DNA from: an uncultured Candidatus Saccharibacteria bacterium
GTDB taxonomy: Bacteria > Patescibacteriota > Minisyncoccia > Minisyncoccales > Staskawiczbacteraceae
Direction of reading: 5' to 3'
Length of the DNA stretch: 64,000 nucleotides
Assembly (NCBI GenBank): GCA_964475855.1
Contig: CAYZAV010000001.1
Coordinates: 211,987 to 275,986 of the forward strand
The notes beneath the pieces were generated by a model. The model saw only the letters and a program-made list of their open reading frames with translations. It was not told where the DNA came from and did not search any database. Below are positions 2,292-51,612 of the stretch, one piece after another. Numbering within the stretch: the first letter of the stretch is position 1; each line of letters opens with the position of its first letter. Position numbers and translations under genes: made by a program.

Positions 2292-3455
2292 ATGAAAACA
2301 ACCTTAAAAAATGATATCACTATTAAAGAAGTTTGCGACGGCTTTGTCTACAACGAACTCGAAGGAAAAGGTTTGTTTGGTCTATCTGGAAAATTAACTA
2401 TTCAGCCAGAGTATCAGCGTAATTACATTTACGCTGACGGCAAACGTGACGTTGCTGTAATTGACTCAATTTTGAAAGGTTACCCAATAGGTCTAATTTA
2501 TTTCAACCAAGTTGGTACTGACAAGTTTGAGGTGTTGGATGGTCAACAGCGCATCACGAGTATCGGTCGATTTATAACTGGTAAATTTGCCGTTAAAGAC
2601 AAGAATGGTCACGAACAGTATTACAGCGGTATGGCTATCAGCCAGCGCGAACAAATAATGAACGCTAAATTGTTAGTGTATTTGTGTAAAGGTGATGAGC
2701 CTGAGATCAAGGATTGGTTTAAGACTATCAACATCGCTGGTGTGCCATTAACTGAGCAAGAGATTCTTAACGCTGTATATTCTGGACCATTTGTCACTCG
2801 TGCCCGCGAAGAATTTAGTAATAGCCAAAATGCTAATGTCCATAAATGGAGCGCGTACATAGCTGGTGATATCAAACGCCAAGCATATTTGGAACGGGCT
2901 TTAGATTGGGTTTCTGGTGGTGCAATCGACAACTATATGAGCATGCATCGCAATGACAAAAATATTACCGAACTAAAAAAACATTTTGATACGGTGATTG
3001 ATTGGGTTTCAACTATCTTCATCGATGTTGAAAGCGAAATGAAGGGACTTGAGTGGAATAGGCTTTACGAAACTTACCATAAGAAAAAATATAACCCCTC
3101 TACTGTGTCCGCCTTGGTTCAGAGACTCTACGCCGACGGTTTCGTAAAAAGTCGCAAAGGTATTTTTGAATATGTTCTAGGTGGAGAAGTTGACACAAAG
3201 CTACTTGAAGTGCGAGTATTTGAGGATTCAACTAAGCGTTCAGTTTACGAAGCTCAAACTACTAACGCAAAGAAAAAAGGAATTTCAAACTGTCCGCACT
3301 GTGCAATAGGTCACGATGCAAACAAGGATAAAATTTGGAGTCTTGCAGATATGGACGCCGACCACGTATCAGCTTGGAGCAAAGGTGGCAAAACAATGCT
3401 TAATAATTGCGAGATGTTGTGTAAGACGCACAACCGAGCAAAAGGAAATCGGTAA
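2292..3455 (+). CDS. DUF262 (ParB-like/GmrSD N-terminal) domain protein with C-terminal HNH nuclease
   Basis: ATG at 2292 lies 1 nt after the MTase stop; the track ORF start at 2184 lies inside the MTase gene. DGQQR motif of DUF262. C-terminal CPHC...[12 protein letters not shown]...[15 protein letters not shown] is an HNH/His-Me finger. Confidence 0.8.
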
Positions 3456-3460
3456 AAATT

Positions 3461-4102
3461 ATGCCTATTAATGATTTTGGTAATTGGCTAAATAATAATC
3501 AAGGTGTTCTCTCGGTCATTCTTTTCGTGCTGACAATTATTTTGGCTTGGTTCGCGGGTTTTTTTAAATGGATAAGAAATGAAGTATCAAGAGGAAAAAG
3601 AGCAAGTAAAATCATCTGTGCTTGGAGTTTATTTCCAGATAAAGAAGATAATGAATTTTTTGAATATAAATTTGCTCCGCGATTTCAAAACAAAACAGAT
3701 GAAATTATCAAAGATTTTTGGATAAATTTTGCATCTTCTGGATTTGATCTCACATTAAACCAGACAGCGCAAATTTCTTTATTTGATGGTTGGAATGTAA
3801 GGGGTGATGCCCTACATCTAACATCAAAGGACAGCTATAAGTTTGCCCCTCAAAATTTTCTTGAACCATTTGAAATTGTTATTAAGCTAAGGAAAAAATT
3901 ACCTGAACATGGAGCATGGCTTTATATTTCTTATGGAATTCCAAATTCTAAAAAGATTGAACTAAATTATTGTCTAACATATAAAGAACTAAAGATATTC
4001 GTTGACAGTAGTGAGCATTCAGGGCAGAAGTTTCTTAAATATATGGGAGTAACAACTAATAGCTTTTGGAAAACAAAATTTTTTAGACTATTTTCAAACT
4101 AG
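3461..4102 (+). CDS. N-terminally membrane-anchored protein of unknown function (last gene of the island operon)
   Basis: 213-aa ORF starting 5 nt after the previous stop. One N-terminal TM helix (VLSVILFVLTIILAWFAGFF). No recognisable motif. Confidence 0.6.
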   Translation: MPINDFGNWLNNNQGVLSVILFVLTIILAWFAGFFKWIRNEVSRGKRASKIICAWSLFPDKEDNEFFEYKFAPRFQNKTDEIIKDFWINFASSGFDLTLNQTAQISLFDGWNVRGDALHLTSKDSYKFAPQNFLEPFEIVIKLRKKLPEHGAWLYISYGIPNSKKIELNYCLTYKELKIFVDSSEHSGQKFLKYMGVTTNSFWKTKFFRLFSN

Positions 4103-15805: not shown

Positions 15806-17335
15806 CTACTTACGTAGTTTTTCTGTGACCCAAAAGCCCATGTATCTGCCCAGCATCAGTCTGATTTGGGCATCTAAAGCCGGGAATGAACCAAAAATAA
15901 TTAAGATGGCGGGCAAGCAGATCCACTGCAAAAACAGGAATATTTTTTTAAAGTAACTCATGCCTTTTGGCATTGGCGGCAATAGCATGGTACTCAAGGC
16001 GGCCGAAACCAACATGCCAACCAGGGAAATAGTCATAATCCTGCCCGTTAAAATAGGCAGATTAAATGACAAAATGCTGAAGTTAAACTTATCGCCCCCT
16101 AAAAAAATGGGCAGCCAGCCAAGCATAAAGAGCAACAAGGCAGCCGTGGCCCATGACCAATAGCCGTCAATAATAGTGTAAAGATGCGAAACTTTCGGCC
16201 AAAAGCCGATATTTTTGTTGTGCAAAAATCCGAACATGACATAGGGGATTTCCGCACAGCCCCAAGCCCAGCGTTTTTGCTGGCGATATTGGTTTAAGAT
16301 GGTTTTAAACACATTAGTGGAATCCACCACATCCATGGAAACCAGGTAATAAATGGGCACCACTCGGTAATCCCCGTCATAATACAAATAGGCGCGCCAG
16401 AAAATACGCGAATCATCACAGACCACATTGGCCGGGTAACCCACCTCAAAAAATACTTTGCCGGGAATGGCGTGGCTTGAATACGTGGTTAACTTTTCAG
16501 CCCGTTCCTGCTGGATCATCTGCCAAAAGGTATTTGAGGTGGAAACAATCCGGGCAAAAAACGAAGCTTTCCATACATTATTGTTATACACCGGCACCGG
16601 CTGATAACTGGCGCGCAAGGGGTTTTTCTCGGTCAAAAAATACCACGTCAGGCAGGAAAAATATTGGGGATATACCTTGGTATCAATATCAAAACTAGAA
16701 ACCAAAATATCCTCGTGGGGAATATGTAAATTATCTATCAATTTTCGCGCCTCGCTGCCCGCAAAGGCCACGTTTGACCCTTTTCCTGCAATTTCGCCCT
16801 CAGTGTCCGCCGGATGCACCGTCACTAAAAATGCACGGAAAGCACCGGCGTATTCCCTGGCCAATTTTTGCCCGATATGTTCATACTGCTTGCCGGCGCG
16901 GCCCTCCATGGCCAATACCATAATCAATTTTTCTTTGGGATAATCAGTCGCCAACAGCGACTCCAAGCTGTCACGGATGATGGCCTCGCCCTCTTTGTAC
17001 GTAGGCAAAATGACTACGTGGTAAACGTTTTTATAGTTCTTGCCCCGCAATGCTTTCAATTTTTGTAGCCAATCTTCTTTCAAATGTTTCTTAACCCGGT
17101 AGTAACCAATAATCTGATGCAGGGAAAAGTAAAAAATCCGAAACAGATAATAAAAACAAAAACAGATGATAAAAATAGCCACCCATGAAGGCAGTAGCCA
17201 TGAAAAAATAAAGACTCCTACCAGAGTCCCCAAACTTAACGCCCCCGGGAAAATTTCAAACAGTCGGTAAATGAATTTTTGTTTGCCTGACAAATCCCGT
17301 GCATCGGAAATATTAATGTAATCGGATTTGTTCAT
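15806..17335 (-). CDS. Membrane-embedded family-2 glycosyltransferase (processive, cellulose/chitin-synthase-like)
   Basis: N- and C-terminal TM helices. A GT2 core. QQKRWAWG matches the Q(Q/R)xRW motif. ATG at 17335 (TTG at 17338 in the track). Confidence 0.75.
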   Translation of the reverse strand: MNKSDYINISDARDLSGKQKFIYRLFEIFPGALSLGTLVGVFIFSWLLPSWVAIFIICFCFYYLFRIFYFSLHQIIGYYRVKKHLKEDWLQKLKALRGKNYKNVYHVVILPTYKEGEAIIRDSLESLLATDYPKEKLIMVLAMEGRAGKQYEHIGQKLAREYAGAFRAFLVTVHPADTEGEIAGKGSNVAFAGSEARKLIDNLHIPHEDILVSSFDIDTKVYPQYFSCLTWYFLTEKNPLRASYQPVPVYNNNVWKASFFARIVSTSNTFWQMIQQERAEKLTTYSSHAIPGKVFFEVGYPANVVCDDSRIFWRAYLYYDGDYRVVPIYYLVSMDVVDSTNVFKTILNQYRQQKRWAWGCAEIPYVMFGFLHNKNIGFWPKVSHLYTIIDGYWSWATAALLLFMLGWLPIFLGGDKFNFSILSFNLPILTGRIMTISLVGMLVSAALSTMLLPPMPKGMSYFKKIFLFLQWICLPAILIIFGSFPALDAQIRLMLGRYMGFWVTEKLRK

Positions 17336-17582
17336 CAAGGTAATTTTTCAACATCTTTTTAATAGTCCTGAACCCCCAACCACTTTTTAAATATTTTTCC
17401 CTTTTCAAGGCATCCTTCTGGATAATGAAAGCTTCGTAAAATATGAGAGCATATGGACGAAATGGTTTTGTAGAAATATTATCGCCATTATTATGCTCCG
17501 ATAATCTTCTTTTTAAATCCTTAGTACATCCAATATAGAAACTATTGTTCTTTTTGCTTTGGAGTATATAAACGTAATGCAT
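17313..17582 (-). CDS. Small GIY-YIG nuclease family protein
   Basis: MHYVYILQS...SFYIGCTKDLKRRLSEHN (GIY-X-YIG plus R/E motifs). 89 aa. Overlaps the GT2 gene start by 23 nt. Confidence 0.85.
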   Translation of the reverse strand: MHYVYILQSKKNNSFYIGCTKDLKRRLSEHNNGDNISTKPFRPYALIFYEAFIIQKDALKREKYLKSGWGFRTIKKMLKNYLDEQIRLH

Positions 17583-17590
17583 ACTGTTGG

Positions 17591-17666
17591 CGACACGTAA
17601 TAAATTTTCTCTGAAAATTTACACGTGCCTGCAACGTAAAATTTGCTATGCAAATTTGTACGTTGC
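17591..17666 (+). repeat. tRNA-associated double-hairpin element, copy 1
   Basis: gacacgtaataaattttc..gaaaatttacacgtg plus gcaacgtaaaatttgc-tat-gcaaatttgtacgttgc. Homologous to 42826-42895 and 45079-45152. Abuts the tRNA-Glu 3' end. Confidence 0.7.
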
Positions 17667-17740
17667 GGTCCCACGGGGATTTGAACCCCGGTTACAAGAG
17701 TGAAAATCTTGTGTCCTAGACCAGGCTAGACGATGGGACC
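17666..17740 (-). tRNA. tRNA-Glu(UUC)
   Basis: Reverse complement GGTCCCA TC GTCT AGCCTGGTCT AGGAC...caaga-TTTTCAC-tcttg...GGTTCAAATCC. Confidence 0.9.
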
Positions 17741-41824: not shown

Positions 41825-41932
41825 CTAAATTATTCTAATTATTCTAATTTCTAATTAACCTAATCAAATCCCAATTATTTAGAATAATTAGGTCAATTAG
41901 TATAATTAGAAATTCCCCGCTAGGCGGGGTTG

Positions 41933-42817: not shown

Positions 42818-42825
42818 ATACGGGC

Positions 42826-42895
42826 GACACGTAATAATTTCTTCGGAAATTACATGTGTCAGCAATGTAAAATTTCAGGGAAATTTGTACGTTGC
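42826..42895 (+). repeat. tRNA-associated double-hairpin element, copy 2
   Basis: gacacgtaataatttc-ttcg-gaaattacatgtgtc plus gcaatgtaaaatttc-aggg-aaatttgtacgttgc. The last 2 nt are the first 2 nt of tRNA-Val. Confidence 0.7.
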
Positions 42896-45059: not shown

Positions 45060-45078
45060 CAGGAAAGAAATACGAGGC

Positions 45079-45152
45079 AAGACGTAATAATTTTTTAAGA
45101 AAAAATTAAACGTCTTAGCAACGTAAAATTTCTTCAGAAATTTGTATGTTGC
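45079..45152 (+). repeat. tRNA-associated double-hairpin element, copy 3
   Basis: aagacgtaataatttttt-aag-aaaaaattaaacgtctt plus gcaacgtaaaatttc-ttca-gaaatttgtatgttgc. Stem changes relative to copies 1 and 2 are compensatory. Confidence 0.7.
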
Positions 45153-49106: not shown

Positions 49107-49192
49107 TGGTGCCCAGGGCGGGAGTCGAACCCACATGAGATTACTCTCAGAGGATTTTAAGTCCTCCGTGTATACCATTCCACCACCTGGGC
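49107..49192 (-). tRNA. tRNA-Leu(UAA), CCA encoded
   Basis: Reverse complement GCCCAGG TG GTG GAATGGTATA CAC G gagga-CTTAAAA-tcctc, long variable arm, gtggg-TTCGACT-cccgc CCTGGGC A CCA. Confidence 0.9.
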
Positions 49193-49202
49193 GTAATCTT
49201 TG

Positions 49203-49274
49203 AGGCGCCGGTGGGAATCGCACCCACGTATAAGGGATTTGCAGTCCCTTGCATTACTACTTTGCTACGGCGCC
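49203..49274 (-). tRNA. tRNA-Cys(GCA) with atypical D- and T-loops
   Basis: Reverse complement GGCGCCG TA GCAA AGTAGTA ATGC A aggga-CTGCAAA-tccct tatac gtggg-TGCGATT-cccac CGGCGCC T. Confidence 0.75.
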
Positions 49275-49508
49275 ATATTTTACCTTTAATAATTCTTTTT
49301 GCTGGCCGGTTTTAAAAAATCTTTCCATTTTCATAGCCTCACTCCTTGTATCATAAGGCTCGAATCCCATCAACTGCCATGGTCTGTAAAACTGTGTTGA
49401 TTTTACTTTTCCTGTATTATGAAGGCTTACTCTTTTTCCTACATCCTCCGTAGAGCCAACATACAGATCATTATTCTTTTGACTTTTAAGAAAGTAAACG
49501 TAGAACAT
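49257..49508 (-). CDS. Small GIY-YIG nuclease family protein whose last 18 nt overlap the 5' end of tRNA-Cys
   Basis: MFYVYFLKSQKNNDLYVGSTEDVGKRVSLHN. ATG at 49508 is preferred over the track start at 49541, which runs through two hairpins. Confidence 0.8.
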   Translation of the reverse strand: MFYVYFLKSQKNNDLYVGSTEDVGKRVSLHNTGKVKSTQFYRPWQLMGFEPYDTRSEAMKMERFFKTGQQKELLKVKYGAVAK

Positions 49509-49558
49509 TGCTACTTTGTCTCCCTTCGGGAGATGTCCCATAGGGACACTACGGCGTC
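49506..49558 (-). repeat. Partial duplicate of tRNA-Cys positions 1-23, interrupted by a 30-nt two-hairpin insert
   Basis: ctacggcgtc (49549-58) versus ctacggcgcc (49265-74) gives 9/10. cattgctactttg (49506-18) versus cattactactttg (49252-64) gives 12/13. The insert is tctccc-ttcg-ggaga plus tgtccc-ata-gggaca. Confidence 0.7.
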
Positions 49559-49562
49559 ACGC

Positions 49563-49910
49563 TTATTCTTTTATATCAGTTTCTTTTATCTTTTCCAACA
49601 GCTCTTCAACCCGAGCGGCTTCTTTTATTTTTTCATCAGTTACGAATTTAATCCGCGGTACCGGCCGCATGTTTAGCCGTTTGTTAATCTTGTTTTGCAC
49701 ATCAGCCACACCTTTATTGAGCGTATTCACCACCGCGTCTGTTTTATCTTCCGGCATGACCGAAATATACACTCTGGCTTCAATTAAATTGGCCGTAGCA
49801 TCCACGTGTGTCAGGGTCACCAAACAATCAGCAAAATGAAAATTCCTGGCAATAATAGTGCCAATTTCTCGTTCTAATAAGGAATTTACTTTATTCAGAC
49901 GTTCTGTCAT
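49563..49910 (-). CDS. rbfA: Ribosome-binding factor A
   Basis: MTERLNKVNSLLEREIGTII...VTLTHVDATANLIEARVYISV. ATG at 49910; the track start at 50006 would overlap infB. Confidence 0.85.
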   Translation of the reverse strand: MTERLNKVNSLLEREIGTIIARNFHFADCLVTLTHVDATANLIEARVYISVMPEDKTDAVVNTLNKGVADVQNKINKRLNMRPVPRIKFVTDEKIKEAARVEELLEKIKETDIKE

Positions 49911-49929: not shown

Positions 49930-51612
49930 CTAAAGTACTCCTTTCTGTCGCTCTTCCACCCAGGCCACCAGAATGTCACCCTGCTCAACTTTCGCATTGC
50001 CTTCAAACAAAATACCGCACTCGTCGCCTTTTTTTAATAAATCCATATCTTTTTTGTCGCGCTGCAGATTGATAATACGCCCGCTGCCTACTTTTTCGGC
50101 GCCACGTGTCACGTCTAGCTTTAGCCCTTTTTTGATTTCTCCTTCGGTGATTTTACCGCCCACAATTTGGCGGTTTTTTTCTCCAAAAAAGATAACCAGG
50201 GCCTTAATTTTCCCCACGTCCCGCCGTGCCACCTCCACATCCAATGATTTCTCCATGCCATTGCGGGCTTCCTGGATCAGTTCGTAAATAATAGTAAAAG
50301 TTTTAATGCGCACCTTTTTTTGTTCATCTTTTCTAAGCAGTGCCAGCACGCCGGGGTTGATTTTCACCCGAAAGCCAATAATTTGGGCGCGGGACATTTC
50401 CGCCAGTTTGACATCGCTTTCGTTAATATCGCCCACTTCGCTTTTTAAAATCCGTAAATTTACCTGGTCCTGGGGCAAACTTTTCAGCATGCCCTCAATA
50501 GCTTCCAGGGAACCAAACACATCGCCTTTGAGCACAATATTGACCACTTTTTTGGTTGGATCACTTTCCAGTACATTGTAATTGATTTTGCGTTTTGAAG
50601 CTTCGCCTTGTAGTTTGGTGGCGGCCAGCTCTGCGTTGGCAAAACTTTTGAATTTTTCTCCAACTGAAGGTACATTGGTAAATCCAAGCACAATGGCGGG
50701 CGACCCGGGAAACACCTCTTCTACGGGATGTCCTTGGAAATTTTCCAGTTGTCGCACCTTGGCCATGGCTAAATCCGTGGCAATAATATCTTTTTTACGC
50801 AATACGCCCTTTTCCACAATCACCGTGGCTACCGGGCCCTTTAAACTGTCCATGTAAGACTCAATCACCAGTCCTTCGGCGGGTACCGTAATATCTGTCG
50901 AAAAATCTTGCATTTCGGCCACCAGTAAAATCATTTCCAGTAATTCATCAATGCCTGTTTTTTCTTTGGCCGAAACTTCAACGCTGGGCACTTCGCCCCC
51001 CATGCTTTCCACATACACCTCAATTTTAGAAAGTTCGTTCTTGATTTTCTGCGGGTCAGCCGTTGGCAAGTCTATTTTGTTAAGCACCACAATCATGGGT
51101 ATCTCTGCCTTTTTAATGGCCATAATGGCTTCCTTGGTTTGTGGTTGCACACTTTGAGCCGCATCCACCACCAACAGGGCAATATCAGCCACCAGCGCCC
51201 CCCGCAGCCTCATAGCCGAAAACGCCTCGTGGCCTGGGGTATCAATAAAGGTAATTTTGCTTACCTGCCCTGAGCTTGTCGAAGGGTGCGACACTTCATA
51301 CGCGCCGATGTGCTGGGTGATACCCCCCGACTCCTTGGCCGTGATTTTAAAATCTTTAATGGCTTCCAATAAGCTAGATTTCCCATGGTCCACGTGCCCC
51401 AAAACCACCACCACTGGAGGGCGTTTGAAAACGGGCTTTGGCGTCGCACTAGCTTCTGGCTTGGCTGATTCAATGATTACTTCTGGTGCTTTTATGATTA
51501 TTTCCGTAACAGGCAAAACAGCCTCAACTTTCTTGGGCTTCTTCGGTTTAACTTCTTTTGGTTTTTTTACTGCCTTGGGCTTGGTTGCCGCTGGCGATTT
51601 TTTCGTTGCCAT
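49930..51612 (-). CDS. infB: Translation initiation factor IF-2 (short N-terminus) with a repeat-derived in-frame insertion in the G domain
   Basis: PVVVVLGHVDHGKSSLL (G1), DTPGHEAF (G3), NKID (G4). The insertion SHPSTSSGQVSK lies between GGITQHIGAYEV and ITFIDTPGH. Confidence 0.93.
   Translation of the reverse strand: MATKKSPAATKPKAVKKPKEVKPKKPKKVEAVLPVTEIIIKAPEVIIESAKPEASATPKPVFKRPPVVVVLGHVDHGKSSLLEAIKDFKITAKESGGITQHIGAYEVSHPSTSSGQVSKITFIDTPGHEAFSAMRLRGALVADIALLVVDAAQSVQPQTKEAIMAIKKAEIPMIVVLNKIDLPTADPQKIKNELSKIEVYVESMGGEVPSVEVSAKEKTGIDELLEMILLVAEMQDFSTDITVPAEGLVIESYMDSLKGPVATVIVEKGVLRKKDIIATDLAMAKVRQLENFQGHPVEEVFPGSPAIVLGFTNVPSVGEKFKSFANAELAATKLQGEASKRKINYNVLESDPTKKVVNIVLKGDVFGSLEAIEGMLKSLPQDQVNLRILKSEVGDINESDVKLAEMSRAQIIGFRVKINPGVLALLRKDEQKKVRIKTFTIIYELIQEARNGMEKSLDVEVARRDVGKIKALVIFFGEKNRQIVGGKITEGEIKKGLKLDVTRGAEKVGSGRIINLQRDKKDMDLLKKGDECGILFEGNAKVEQGDILVAWVEERQKGVL

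Follow-up and report, generated by a model that had tools for sequence, protein, structure and literature searches.

A mini GIY-YIG gene between tRNA-Cys-derived repeats in a Saccharibacteria genome: a probable homing-type cassette associated with palindromic double hairpins

Introduction

How does a gene for a very small predicted nuclease come to lie between two copies of the 5′ end of a tRNA-Cys gene? The question is posed by a 64,000-nucleotide (nt) stretch of DNA from an uncultured Candidatus Saccharibacteria bacterium (assembly GCA_964475855.1, contig CAYZAV010000001.1, positions 211,987 to 275,986), referred to here as the window, in which infB, rbfA, a tRNA-like stretch, a GIY-YIG open reading frame (ORF), tRNA-Cys(GCA), and tRNA-Leu(TAA) follow one another on the minus strand. 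An initial annotation of this DNA, made from its letters, had read the GIY-YIG gene as part of a homing-type cassette inserted into the D-arm of the tRNA gene. The analysis described here suggests that the locus is probably a minimal homing-type selfish cassette within a tRNA transcription unit, of the kind called mORFs in fungal mitochondria. The wider finding, as brought out by sequence comparison, is a family-wide architecture coupled to covarying DNA palindromes.

The tRNA-Cys locus of the window

The functional tRNA-Cys(GCA) (49274..49202, minus strand) was located by ARAGORN and matches the Rfam tRNA family (RF00005, 66.5 bits). The mini GIY-YIG gene (49508..49257, minus strand), encoding 83 amino acids and a stop (MFYVYFLKS...KVKYGAVAK*), ends within this tRNA, as the initial annotation had stated: the 3′ end of the ORF, GGC GCC GTA GCA AAG TAG, is nt 1-18 of tRNA-Cys. 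The overlap amounts to five codons and the stop, one codon fewer than first counted, with the preceding Tyr codon outside the tRNA. At its other end the gene is joined to a 53-nt tRNA-like stretch (49558..49506, minus strand), which contains a pseudo-copy of the tRNA 5′ part in two pieces. The first, GACGCCGTAG (49558..49549, minus strand), corresponds to nt 1-10 of tRNA-Cys with 9/10 identities, and the second, CAAAGTAGCAATG (49518..49506, minus strand), to nt 11-23 with 12/13 identities. Between pseudo-tRNA nt 10 and 11, a 30-nt double-hairpin palindromic module, TGTCCCtatGGGACA TCTCCCgaaGGGAGA, is found (49548..49519, given without strand). The last three bases of CAAAGTAGCAATG are the ATG of the ORF, so that the start codon coincides with the end of the duplicated D-arm piece, as had been proposed. 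This ATG (49508..49506) is the likely start of the protein, judging from the opening MFYVYF that the 83-residue product has in common with its homologues; the alternative 94-residue frame of the ORF listing begins within the hairpins of the 30-nt module. Because a non-functional partial 5′ copy precedes it, the nuclease gene lies between direct repeats of tRNA sequence. The pseudo-copy starts 4 nt past the rbfA stop codon, in the same place where relatives with an empty site (see below) begin their tRNA-Cys, and no downstream pseudo-part accompanies the window cassette.

The second copy of tRNA nt 1-23 was then examined against chance expectation. Allowing at most one mismatch, the 13-mer has two sites only in 64 kb, tRNA-Cys itself and the pseudo-copy, with 0.06 expected by chance. 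Gapped local alignment of tRNA nt 1-42 with the upstream 153 nt gave a score of 14.9, which was matched by 1 of 4966 random window pieces. In favor of a chance match, with the ORF overlapping the tRNA by accident, the 10-mer on its own is not significant (5 found vs 2.1 expected). However, the 13-mer has no match besides the tRNA, the combined alignment is almost never equalled, and dozens of independent loci show the same arrangement; chance similarity is thereby excluded, and we give an accidental origin practically no credence. One of the 10-mer copies is colinear with the 13-mer and lies exactly 30 nt upstream of it. The duplication described by the initial annotation, and its placement of the nuclease gene between direct repeats from the tRNA 5′ end, thus withstand alignment statistics.

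tRNA linkage and pseudo-copies in relatives

A scan of a genome collection, with one genome per species, returned at least 534 relatives, and the best 80 loci were examined; further loci were reached through RbfA homologues. A same-strand tRNA lies within 60 nt of the domain in 74 of these 80 loci, bearing out the tRNA proximity that had been anticipated, and at none of the 80 is the nearest tRNA on the opposite strand. In 51 the gene is directly upstream of tRNA-Cys(GCA), and the gene of the window, on the tRNA strand, adjoins nt 1 of a complete, functional tRNA-Cys; the others are beside tRNA-Ser, Gln, Arg, His, Met, or Leu. One specific site, directly 5′ of tRNA-Cys, is therefore conserved over 51 loci, as is usual for homing genes. 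At most of them the ORF ends between 22 nt inside the tRNA and 16 nt before its nt 1. Altogether at least 14 different tRNA partners were found, with both upstream and downstream arrangements. The order infB-rbfA-[cassette]-tRNA-Cys-tRNA-Leu is retained in about 30 loci; in the window this frame consists of infB (51612..49930), the farthest upstream gene, rbfA (49910..49563), the immediate upstream neighbor, and tRNA-Leu(TAA) (49192..49107), which lies 9 nt 3′ of tRNA-Cys and is its conserved partner in relatives, all on the minus strand.

At most of the 51 tRNA-Cys loci, the ATG is preceded by a copy of tRNA-Cys nt 1 to about 40-46, which a two-hairpin module of 30-31 nt interrupts after nt 33/34. 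A hairpin or module is additionally present in the D-loop at about 15 of these loci, so that modules occupy the anticodon loop of the pseudo-copy, its D-loop, or both; the functional tRNA was without a hairpin at every locus examined. Two loci of the same clade, L209 (nt 1-28) and L044, have short pseudo-copies like that of the window (nt 1-23). The D-arm, taken as the boundary of the insertion in the initial annotation, holds as such for these three loci, whereas in most relatives the duplicated part spans the anticodon arm. In this layout, the ORF is flanked by a duplicated part of its host gene, of which one copy is functional and the other displaced.

At many loci the pseudo-copy is 95-100% identical to the locus's own tRNA over 38-46 nt, and perfect copies occur in L003 (42/42), L012 (39/39), and L019, L030, L038, and L041 (40/40 each); functional tRNAs compared across loci agree in only about 72% of nt 1-40. 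In 22/52 loci, no tRNA matches the pseudo-copy better than the one at the same locus. Since the tRNA-Cys of another lineage fits the pseudo-copy better in about 20/52, the loci are mosaics, and in L048 and likewise in L001 the pseudo-copy and the functional copy are of different tRNA-Cys types. Such mosaics of live and dead copies, at tRNA-Cys and at other tRNA genes, call for caution in tRNA annotation and phylogeny.

Across Patescibacteria, pseudo-copies also accompany GIY-YIG genes that precede tRNA-Ser, Gln, His, Arg, and Met; their hairpins belong to different hairpin families and occupy the D-, anticodon-, or T-loop, and perfect pseudo-copies are present in L060 (49/49), L059 (55/55), and L076 (54/54). 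A mirrored design was observed in Bacteroidota, Ignavibacteria, and Chitinophagales, where the tRNA is followed by the ORF (starting 0-57 nt past the tRNA) and then by a pseudo 3′ part with a hairpin in its T-loop. Tandem units of this mirrored kind also occur. In a Chitinophagales metagenome-assembled genome (MAG), four identical 300-nt units stand in tandem 3′ of tRNA-Arg(ACG) (L071, 3001-4200), each comprising a GIY-YIG ORF and a tRNA-Arg pseudo 3′ part with its T-loop hairpin; L067 and L063 have two units.

A pseudo 3′ part of tRNA-Cys is present on the 3′ side of the functional tRNA in at least 17 of the 51 tRNA-Cys loci. It takes the form (A/G)GTCTG, module, nt 35-76, is identical to the functional tRNA in up to 40/40 positions, and often has a second module in the T-loop. 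Where both sides carry an anticodon-loop module, identity between the left and right copies reaches 90% or more in 6 of 11 loci, vs 4.5% of cross-locus pairs. The full layout can be read as a resident tRNA-Cys split at nt 34/35 by M-CAAAAC-ORF-tRNA-Cys-GGTCTG-M, where M is the module. It may have arisen by homing, with the split parts as homology arms, or may mark a hairpin-bounded element that carries its own tRNA. Pseudo 3′ parts within 200 nt past the functional tRNA-Cys, with modules in the anticodon and T-loops, were seen in L022, L017, L064, L043, and others. Two pseudo 3′ copies stand in tandem in L022, and in L209 an identical module is found upstream of the ORF and in a pseudo T-arm past the functional tRNA.

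Empty, occupied, and alternative alleles

Loci around RbfA homologues with 61-77% identity to the RbfA of the window allowed empty and occupied sites to be compared. Uninterrupted alleles, for which the initial annotation had suggested a search, were found in L081, L085/86, L207/208, L210, L211, and L212: here an intact tRNA-Cys begins 5-49 nt past the rbfA stop, and the interval contains neither a GIY-YIG gene nor a pseudo-copy. A GIY-YIG gene occupies the site in the window, in L209, whose cassette is 63% identical to that of the window, and in L044. The tRNA-Cys of the window and that of the empty L081 are identical over nt 1-46, and their sole difference is a compensating T-stem pair. The empty L212 has the same tRNA-Cys as the functional copy of the occupied L209, with flanking genes only about 70% identical; L207, the closest relative in this comparison, has a third type of acceptor stem.

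The same slot can also hold an ORF of the LAGLIDADG_3 family, as between rbfA and tRNA-Cys in L082 (2864-3724) and L083/L084 (about 2874-3632). The ORF of L082 continues directly into tRNA nt 1 (..LQMH|GAVAKT..), and a further LAGLIDADG_3 ORF lies directly 3′ of tRNA-Leu in L081 (3103-3792); no tRNA duplication was seen alongside any of these ORFs. Because the slot is empty in some close relatives and taken by a LAGLIDADG gene in others, the cassette has evidently been gained and lost, and by these comparisons the interval between rbfA and tRNA-Cys is a hot spot of gain, loss, and re-occupation.

The mini GIY-YIG protein family

The 83-residue product matches Pfam PF01541 over residues 1-70 (54.8 bits vs a cut-off of 22.6, E=1.2e-14). 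Its AlphaFold model (pLDDT 94.3) has strands at residues 2-9, 15-20, and 44-52 and helices at 23-32, 55-65, and 68-78; together with the conserved residues, this is the beta-beta-alpha-beta-alpha fold of GIY-YIG domains. Alignment of 44 sequences revealed 14 invariant columns, including Y5, G18, R26, N31, and E62, with Y16 and H30 nearly invariant. The nearest profile matches are the UPF0213 proteins 1ywl (E=2e-8) and 1zg2 (8e-8), followed by SLX1 (2e-5), and in fold comparisons UPF0213 and SLX1 are best, with I-TevI and UvrC behind. SLX1 acts together with SLX4 on branched DNA in eukaryotes. To our knowledge, neither tRNA linkage nor mobility is documented anywhere for UPF0213 proteins (YhbQ/EF2693/BH0048). 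Searches of PADLOC, PHROGs, and NCBIfam gave weak generic matches to homing or group I intron endonucleases only (E about 1e-3 to 1e-5) and no assignment to a defence system; no close phage sequence match was found, the best PHROG E-value being about 1e-3.

Among the matches listed, 100 homologues are 46-74% identical to the protein and come mostly from Patescibacteria. Their C-termini often read ...YGAVAK, FGLVAK(W), or YMAE/YMAR, which are tRNA 5′ ends translated in frame; tails of the type G.VAK(W)* are nt 1-18/21 of the tRNA. A profile search of 1.8 billion cluster representatives returned 3480 clusters (50% identity) at E<=1e-10. Since their members are nearly all 80-130 amino acids long, the family is one of predicted stand-alone mini-nucleases.

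The double-hairpin module

The two hairpins noted by the initial annotation are present in the 30-nt insert, which is not a random one: it belongs to a family of dispersed double-hairpin mini-elements. For structural analysis, inserts were delimited by aligning pseudo-copies to their tRNAs, not by searching for hairpins. In the resulting alignment, 99.2% of cells are paired in the two-hairpin fold, and 8 of the 12 pairs are changed on both sides; the score was reached by 0/500 shuffles, and slid controls paired at most 53%. The stems contain a single G-U pair in 251 cells and are otherwise Watson-Crick. Loop 1 reads T-N-Y and loop 2 R-N-A, so that the module has an overall dyad. Either strand of the window 30-mer folds into two hairpins as single-stranded DNA (-9.2 kcal/mol, z about -4), and modules within ORFs are on the same strand as the ORF in 17 cases and on the opposite strand in 19. 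The near-absence of G-U pairs, the dyad, the equal folding of both strands, and the lack of strand bias favor a palindrome acting at the DNA level, and a structure formed in RNA only is disfavored by this sequence evidence.

In about 500 kb of GIY-YIG loci, 44/52 modules lie within 160 nt of the ORF. A metagenome scan with one module subtype found at least 120 stretches, of which 87 copies were analyzed; only 5/87 adjoin a GIY-YIG gene, and 36/87 are inside stop-free frames of at least 150 amino acids. The flanks of these copies read (A)TTG^M^(C/A)AA(A/T)TT, with T at -2 in 78/87, G at -1 in 58/87, and A at +2 in 76/87 solo modules, and exact flanking repeats of 7-8 nt were seen at 9/87. The preferred TG^CAA is exactly the anticodon loop of tRNA-Cys (cTG^CAAa), and the D-loop is similar. 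With a compensatory two-hairpin structure and many unrelated sites with a preferred target, the 30-nt insert is, on sequence grounds, a separate dispersed palindromic mini-element with a preference for TG^CAA.

Individual copies illustrate the range of sites. In L018 a module (1538-1567) is in-frame within the infB ORF (1359-2918), adding LPSGDLPKGD before DTPGH in the IF-2 G domain, and a second copy (3913-3942) lies in the ORF at 3366-4073 with AAAATTG on either side. One metagenome contig has four modules in 13.5 kb (L094; 645, 1710, 4781, and 7013), all with C-rich flanks (..cccc^M^cacc..) instead of TTG/CAA and one in a stop-free frame of 2572 codons. A 20-nt palindrome, CCTGCCTGCCGGCAGGCAGG, recurs exactly in L005 (952), L016 (4673), L057 (2960), L070 (2959), L085 (3799), L148 (297), and L179 (7873), on unrelated contigs that include a Croceitalea (Flavobacteriia) MAG. 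In L005, L057, and L070 it occupies the D-loop of GIY-YIG-adjacent pseudo-tRNA copies, and its dispersal is like that of the module.

Proposed mechanism and alternative explanations

The initial annotation had proposed a homing-type cassette, and the tRNA-derived repeat, the empty alleles, and the association with tRNA genes bear out the core of this proposal; nuclease-driven homing is what we infer from these sequence patterns. The cassette cargo is a gene of roughly 250 bp for a predicted stand-alone GIY-YIG nuclease of the UPF0213/SLX1-like type. This nuclease would break or nick a cassette-free tRNA gene, and recombinational repair would copy the cassette in, with the tRNA fragments serving as homology arms. 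The cassette would bring or regenerate the full tRNA part, and the displaced part would stay behind as the pseudo-copy; the essential tRNA would remain intact because the cassette supplies or regenerates that part. No convincing sigma-70 promoter was found between rbfA and the pseudo-copy, and the sole in-ORF match (49498..49470) scores no better than shuffled sequence. Expression of the GIY-YIG gene may be achieved by read-through transcription from upstream, with RNase P and RNase Z cuts as punctuation. RNase P, by cutting at tRNA nt 1, would deprive the message of its stop and five final codons, which may limit nuclease production. A hairpin insert is tolerated in the dead copy, and may be favored there for breaking the direct repeat or destroying a nuclease site.

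Several observations sit uneasily with the homing cassette. Full identity between pseudo-copy and functional tRNA, seen at many loci, could have come about by in-situ duplication or gene conversion just as well as by import. Homing enzymes such as I-TevI and Seg join the nuclease to a DNA-recognition domain, and here the domain fills residues 1-70 of an 83-residue protein; as the protein is an approximately 80-residue catalytic domain without a recognizable DNA-binding domain, high sequence specificity is doubtful. The nearest solved relatives are not classical homing enzymes, SLX1 being structure-specific and UPF0213 of unassigned function. A plain homing model does not need the near-universal hairpin insert. 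It also leaves the immunity of the occupied allele unexplained, since nt 1-46 of the functional tRNA are identical to those of the empty L081. Finally, GIY-YIG identity roughly follows RbfA identity, so that much of the spread could be vertical. The exception is L044: of the syntenic relatives from the genome scan it is the closest (RbfA 68%, InfB C-terminus 87%), yet its GIY-YIG protein (52%) is the most divergent among the syntenic loci, and its pseudo-copy has decayed; the GIY-YIG protein of L001 is 67% identical to that of the window.

The prominence of the hairpins invites a different explanation, in which the modules are the ends of a mobile element and the GIY-YIG protein is a structure-specific nuclease that cuts such hairpins. 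The unit M-CAAAAC-ORF-tRNA-Cys-GGTCTG-M would insert at TG^CAA of a resident anticodon loop, its own tRNA-Cys would compensate for the damage, and solo 30-nt modules would be non-autonomous derivatives resembling miniature inverted-repeat transposable elements. Such an element would account for the downstream GGTCTG, module, and nt 35-76 of at least 17/51 loci, where the two pseudo-parts make up one tRNA split at nt 34/35, and for the matching left and right modules (6/11 loci against 4.5% of cross-locus pairs). The clustering of 44/52 modules near the ORF, the common TG^CAA flanks of solo copies, the Watson-Crick stems without strand bias, and the SLX1-type structure-specific nucleases among the nearest folds point the same way, as does the double hairpin found 6-10 nt before the ATG of both GIY-YIG genes of the window. 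The window cassette itself, however, has a single module, in the D-loop, and no downstream pseudo-part, and the other hairpin families and loops used at other tRNAs fit tolerated secondary insertions equally well. Moreover, just 5/87 metagenomic modules are beside a GIY-YIG gene, and the mechanism looks inconsistent, because repeats of 7-8 nt flank some solo copies (9/87), whereas insertions in tRNA leave no target duplication. We know of no precedent for a GIY-YIG transposase of this kind, and overall consider this explanation unlikely, though worth keeping in view. A related and likewise doubtful proposal is that the mini GIY-YIG protein mobilizes the double-hairpin mini-elements, with module, GIY-YIG gene, spare tRNA, and module forming the autonomous member of a new class of mobile DNA. 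Such a class would insert into single-stranded loops of tRNA genes (TG^CAA, TTC^GAA) together with its own replacement tRNA, and would seed the genome, protein genes included, with 30-nt in-frame palindromes; its nuclease would be a candidate enzyme for the GC-rich palindromes and double-hairpin elements of fungal mitochondria.

Could the gene instead be a domesticated host gene, such as a repair or maintenance nuclease, that is tied to tRNA operons by regulation rather than mobility, with the pseudo-tRNA and hairpins as a structured regulatory leader? The strict same-strand abutting arrangement without a convincing promoter of its own would suit such a gene, and so would a protein with 14 invariant columns that is often better conserved than the adjacent RbfA and has UPF0213 proteins, of unassigned cellular function, as its relatives. 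Selection on a leader is also a possible reading of the pseudo-copies that are identical to the functional tRNA in many lineages and of their covarying hairpins. Against this, the module is a dispersed repeat that also occurs within coding genes, and scans with Rfam, permissive for the window region and at gathering thresholds for 8 loci, returned tRNAs only, with no family for a leader, hairpin, or intron. The patchy distribution of the cassette among close relatives, with clean empty sites and LAGLIDADG substitution, disfavors a host gene further, and the 14 or more tRNA partners in upstream and downstream arrangements, the identical tandem arrays, and the mosaic pseudo-copies are equally hard to reconcile with one; we regard this explanation as improbable. 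Two other candidates were rejected. An integrase-mediated tRNA island is ruled out by an insert of about 300 bp that contains the GIY-YIG ORF only and no recombinase, and a tRNA intron (group I or other) by the uninterrupted functional tRNA and the lack of an intron family in the Rfam scans.

Comparison with known systems

The homing cassette proposed here has its closest parallel in the mORFs of fungal mitochondria, described for Allomyces macrogynus atp6 and for Glomus atp6, atp9, cox2, and nad3, in which an endonuclease ORF (LAGLIDADG or GIY-YIG) comes with a replacement gene part, and the displaced native part remains as a non-functional remnant (PMC3630166). In both systems, a free-standing endonuclease ORF stands beside a duplicated portion of its host gene, of which one copy is functional, the ORF can be in phase with the host gene, and its presence varies between close relatives. 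The Bacteroidota-type loci, with tRNA, ORF, and pseudo 3′ part, have exactly the mORF layout, whereas in Patescibacteria the polarity is reversed, with the 5′ part duplicated and the ORF upstream. Further differences are that the hosts here are bacteria and the host gene is a tRNA rather than a protein gene, that the nuclease is a bare 80-residue catalytic domain, and that the pseudo-copy nearly always carries small palindromic hairpin inserts. In mORFs the displaced part is the native one, whereas the cassette is likened to them here by its layout.

A second parallel is SegB, a free-standing GIY-YIG homing endonuclease in the tRNA cluster of T4 and T4-like phages (PMC2330249). The genes share a position among or beside tRNA genes, and SegB probably spreads by cutting the cassette-free allele and being co-converted with its flanks. 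Seg proteins are larger, have DNA-binding domains, and are phage-encoded, and their genes neither overlap a tRNA nor lie between tRNA-derived direct repeats. The UPF0213 proteins, nearest to the mini-nuclease by profile and fold, have the same stand-alone size.

Genomic islands and prophages that have tRNA genes as their integration sites are kilobases in length; their integration depends on a tyrosine or serine recombinase and duplicates the 3′ end of the tRNA. Like them, the cassette keeps its tRNA target functional through a carried copy of the displaced part and leaves direct repeats of tRNA sequence; unlike them, it is about 300 bp long, has no recombinase, and in Patescibacteria duplicates the 5′ part. 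Small palindromic elements are known as the double hairpins of Allomyces mitochondrial DNA, the GC-rich palindromes by tRNA genes of Neurospora mitochondrial DNA, the Rickettsia palindromic elements, and the repetitive extragenic palindromes (REPs). The module is like these, by form only, in being a short GC-rich unit of two stem-loops with many dispersed copies; such units are tolerated in-frame in protein genes (here infB of L018) and are often near tRNA genes and endonuclease ORFs. It differs in its length of exactly 30 nt, its TG^CAA flank preference, and its occurrence in Patescibacteria. We know of no mobilizing enzyme for any of these palindrome families except REPs.

A literature search, in which subscription journals were thinly covered, yielded no report of mini GIY-YIG cassettes linked to bacterial tRNA genes or of palindromic elements in Patescibacteria, the work on fungal mORFs and on T4 SegB being all that was relevant, and the locus appears to represent a bacterial counterpart of the fungal mitochondrial mORF that has not been described previously. 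If so, tRNA genes of Patescibacteria and Bacteroidota would host the smallest self-sufficient selfish cassettes yet seen, of about 300 bp, which lack promoter, recombinase, and intron and would persist because they bring along a spare part of the essential gene that they interrupt. A mechanism seen in fungal mitochondria only would be extended to free-living bacterial lineages and to RNA genes, and thousands of annotations of a "GIY-YIG nuclease family protein" beside tRNAs would be explained. The link to covarying DNA-level double hairpins offers a testable candidate for the mover of small palindromic repeats, which are written in-frame even into essential genes such as infB.

The second GIY-YIG gene and other features of the window

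A second mini GIY-YIG gene (17582..17313, minus strand) encodes 89 amino acids that are 43% identical to the first. The initial annotation had called it likewise tRNA-adjacent, and it does lie 82 nt downstream of tRNA-Glu(TTC) (17665..17740, minus strand), on the same strand; the likeness does not extend to a duplicated tRNA-Glu piece, as none was found nearby and the alignment scores are below the 95th percentile of the null. The spacer from the tRNA-Glu 3′ end to the GIY-YIG start is filled by an AT-rich double hairpin (17583..17664, minus strand; minimum free energy as RNA -29.3 kcal/mol), which could be a processing signal or another mobile palindrome.

Further copies of this element, of about 75-80 nt, are found in the window at about 42823-42895 and 45076-45152, both on the plus strand, and end on nt 1-2 of tRNA-Val and tRNA-Gly, respectively. 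The same AT-rich element occupies the same tRNA-to-GIY-YIG spacer in L079 (3345-3426), and L003 has a copy at about 1141-1210.

The hairpins of the 30-nt module were considered as transcription terminators, which is ruled out by the lack of a T-run after them. A GC hairpin at 152-167 is an ordinary terminator, unrelated to the module hairpins. Another GC hairpin, CCCCGCtagGCGGGG (41915-41929), lies within the leader of tRNA-Ile(TAT), between its TATAAT box and nt 1.

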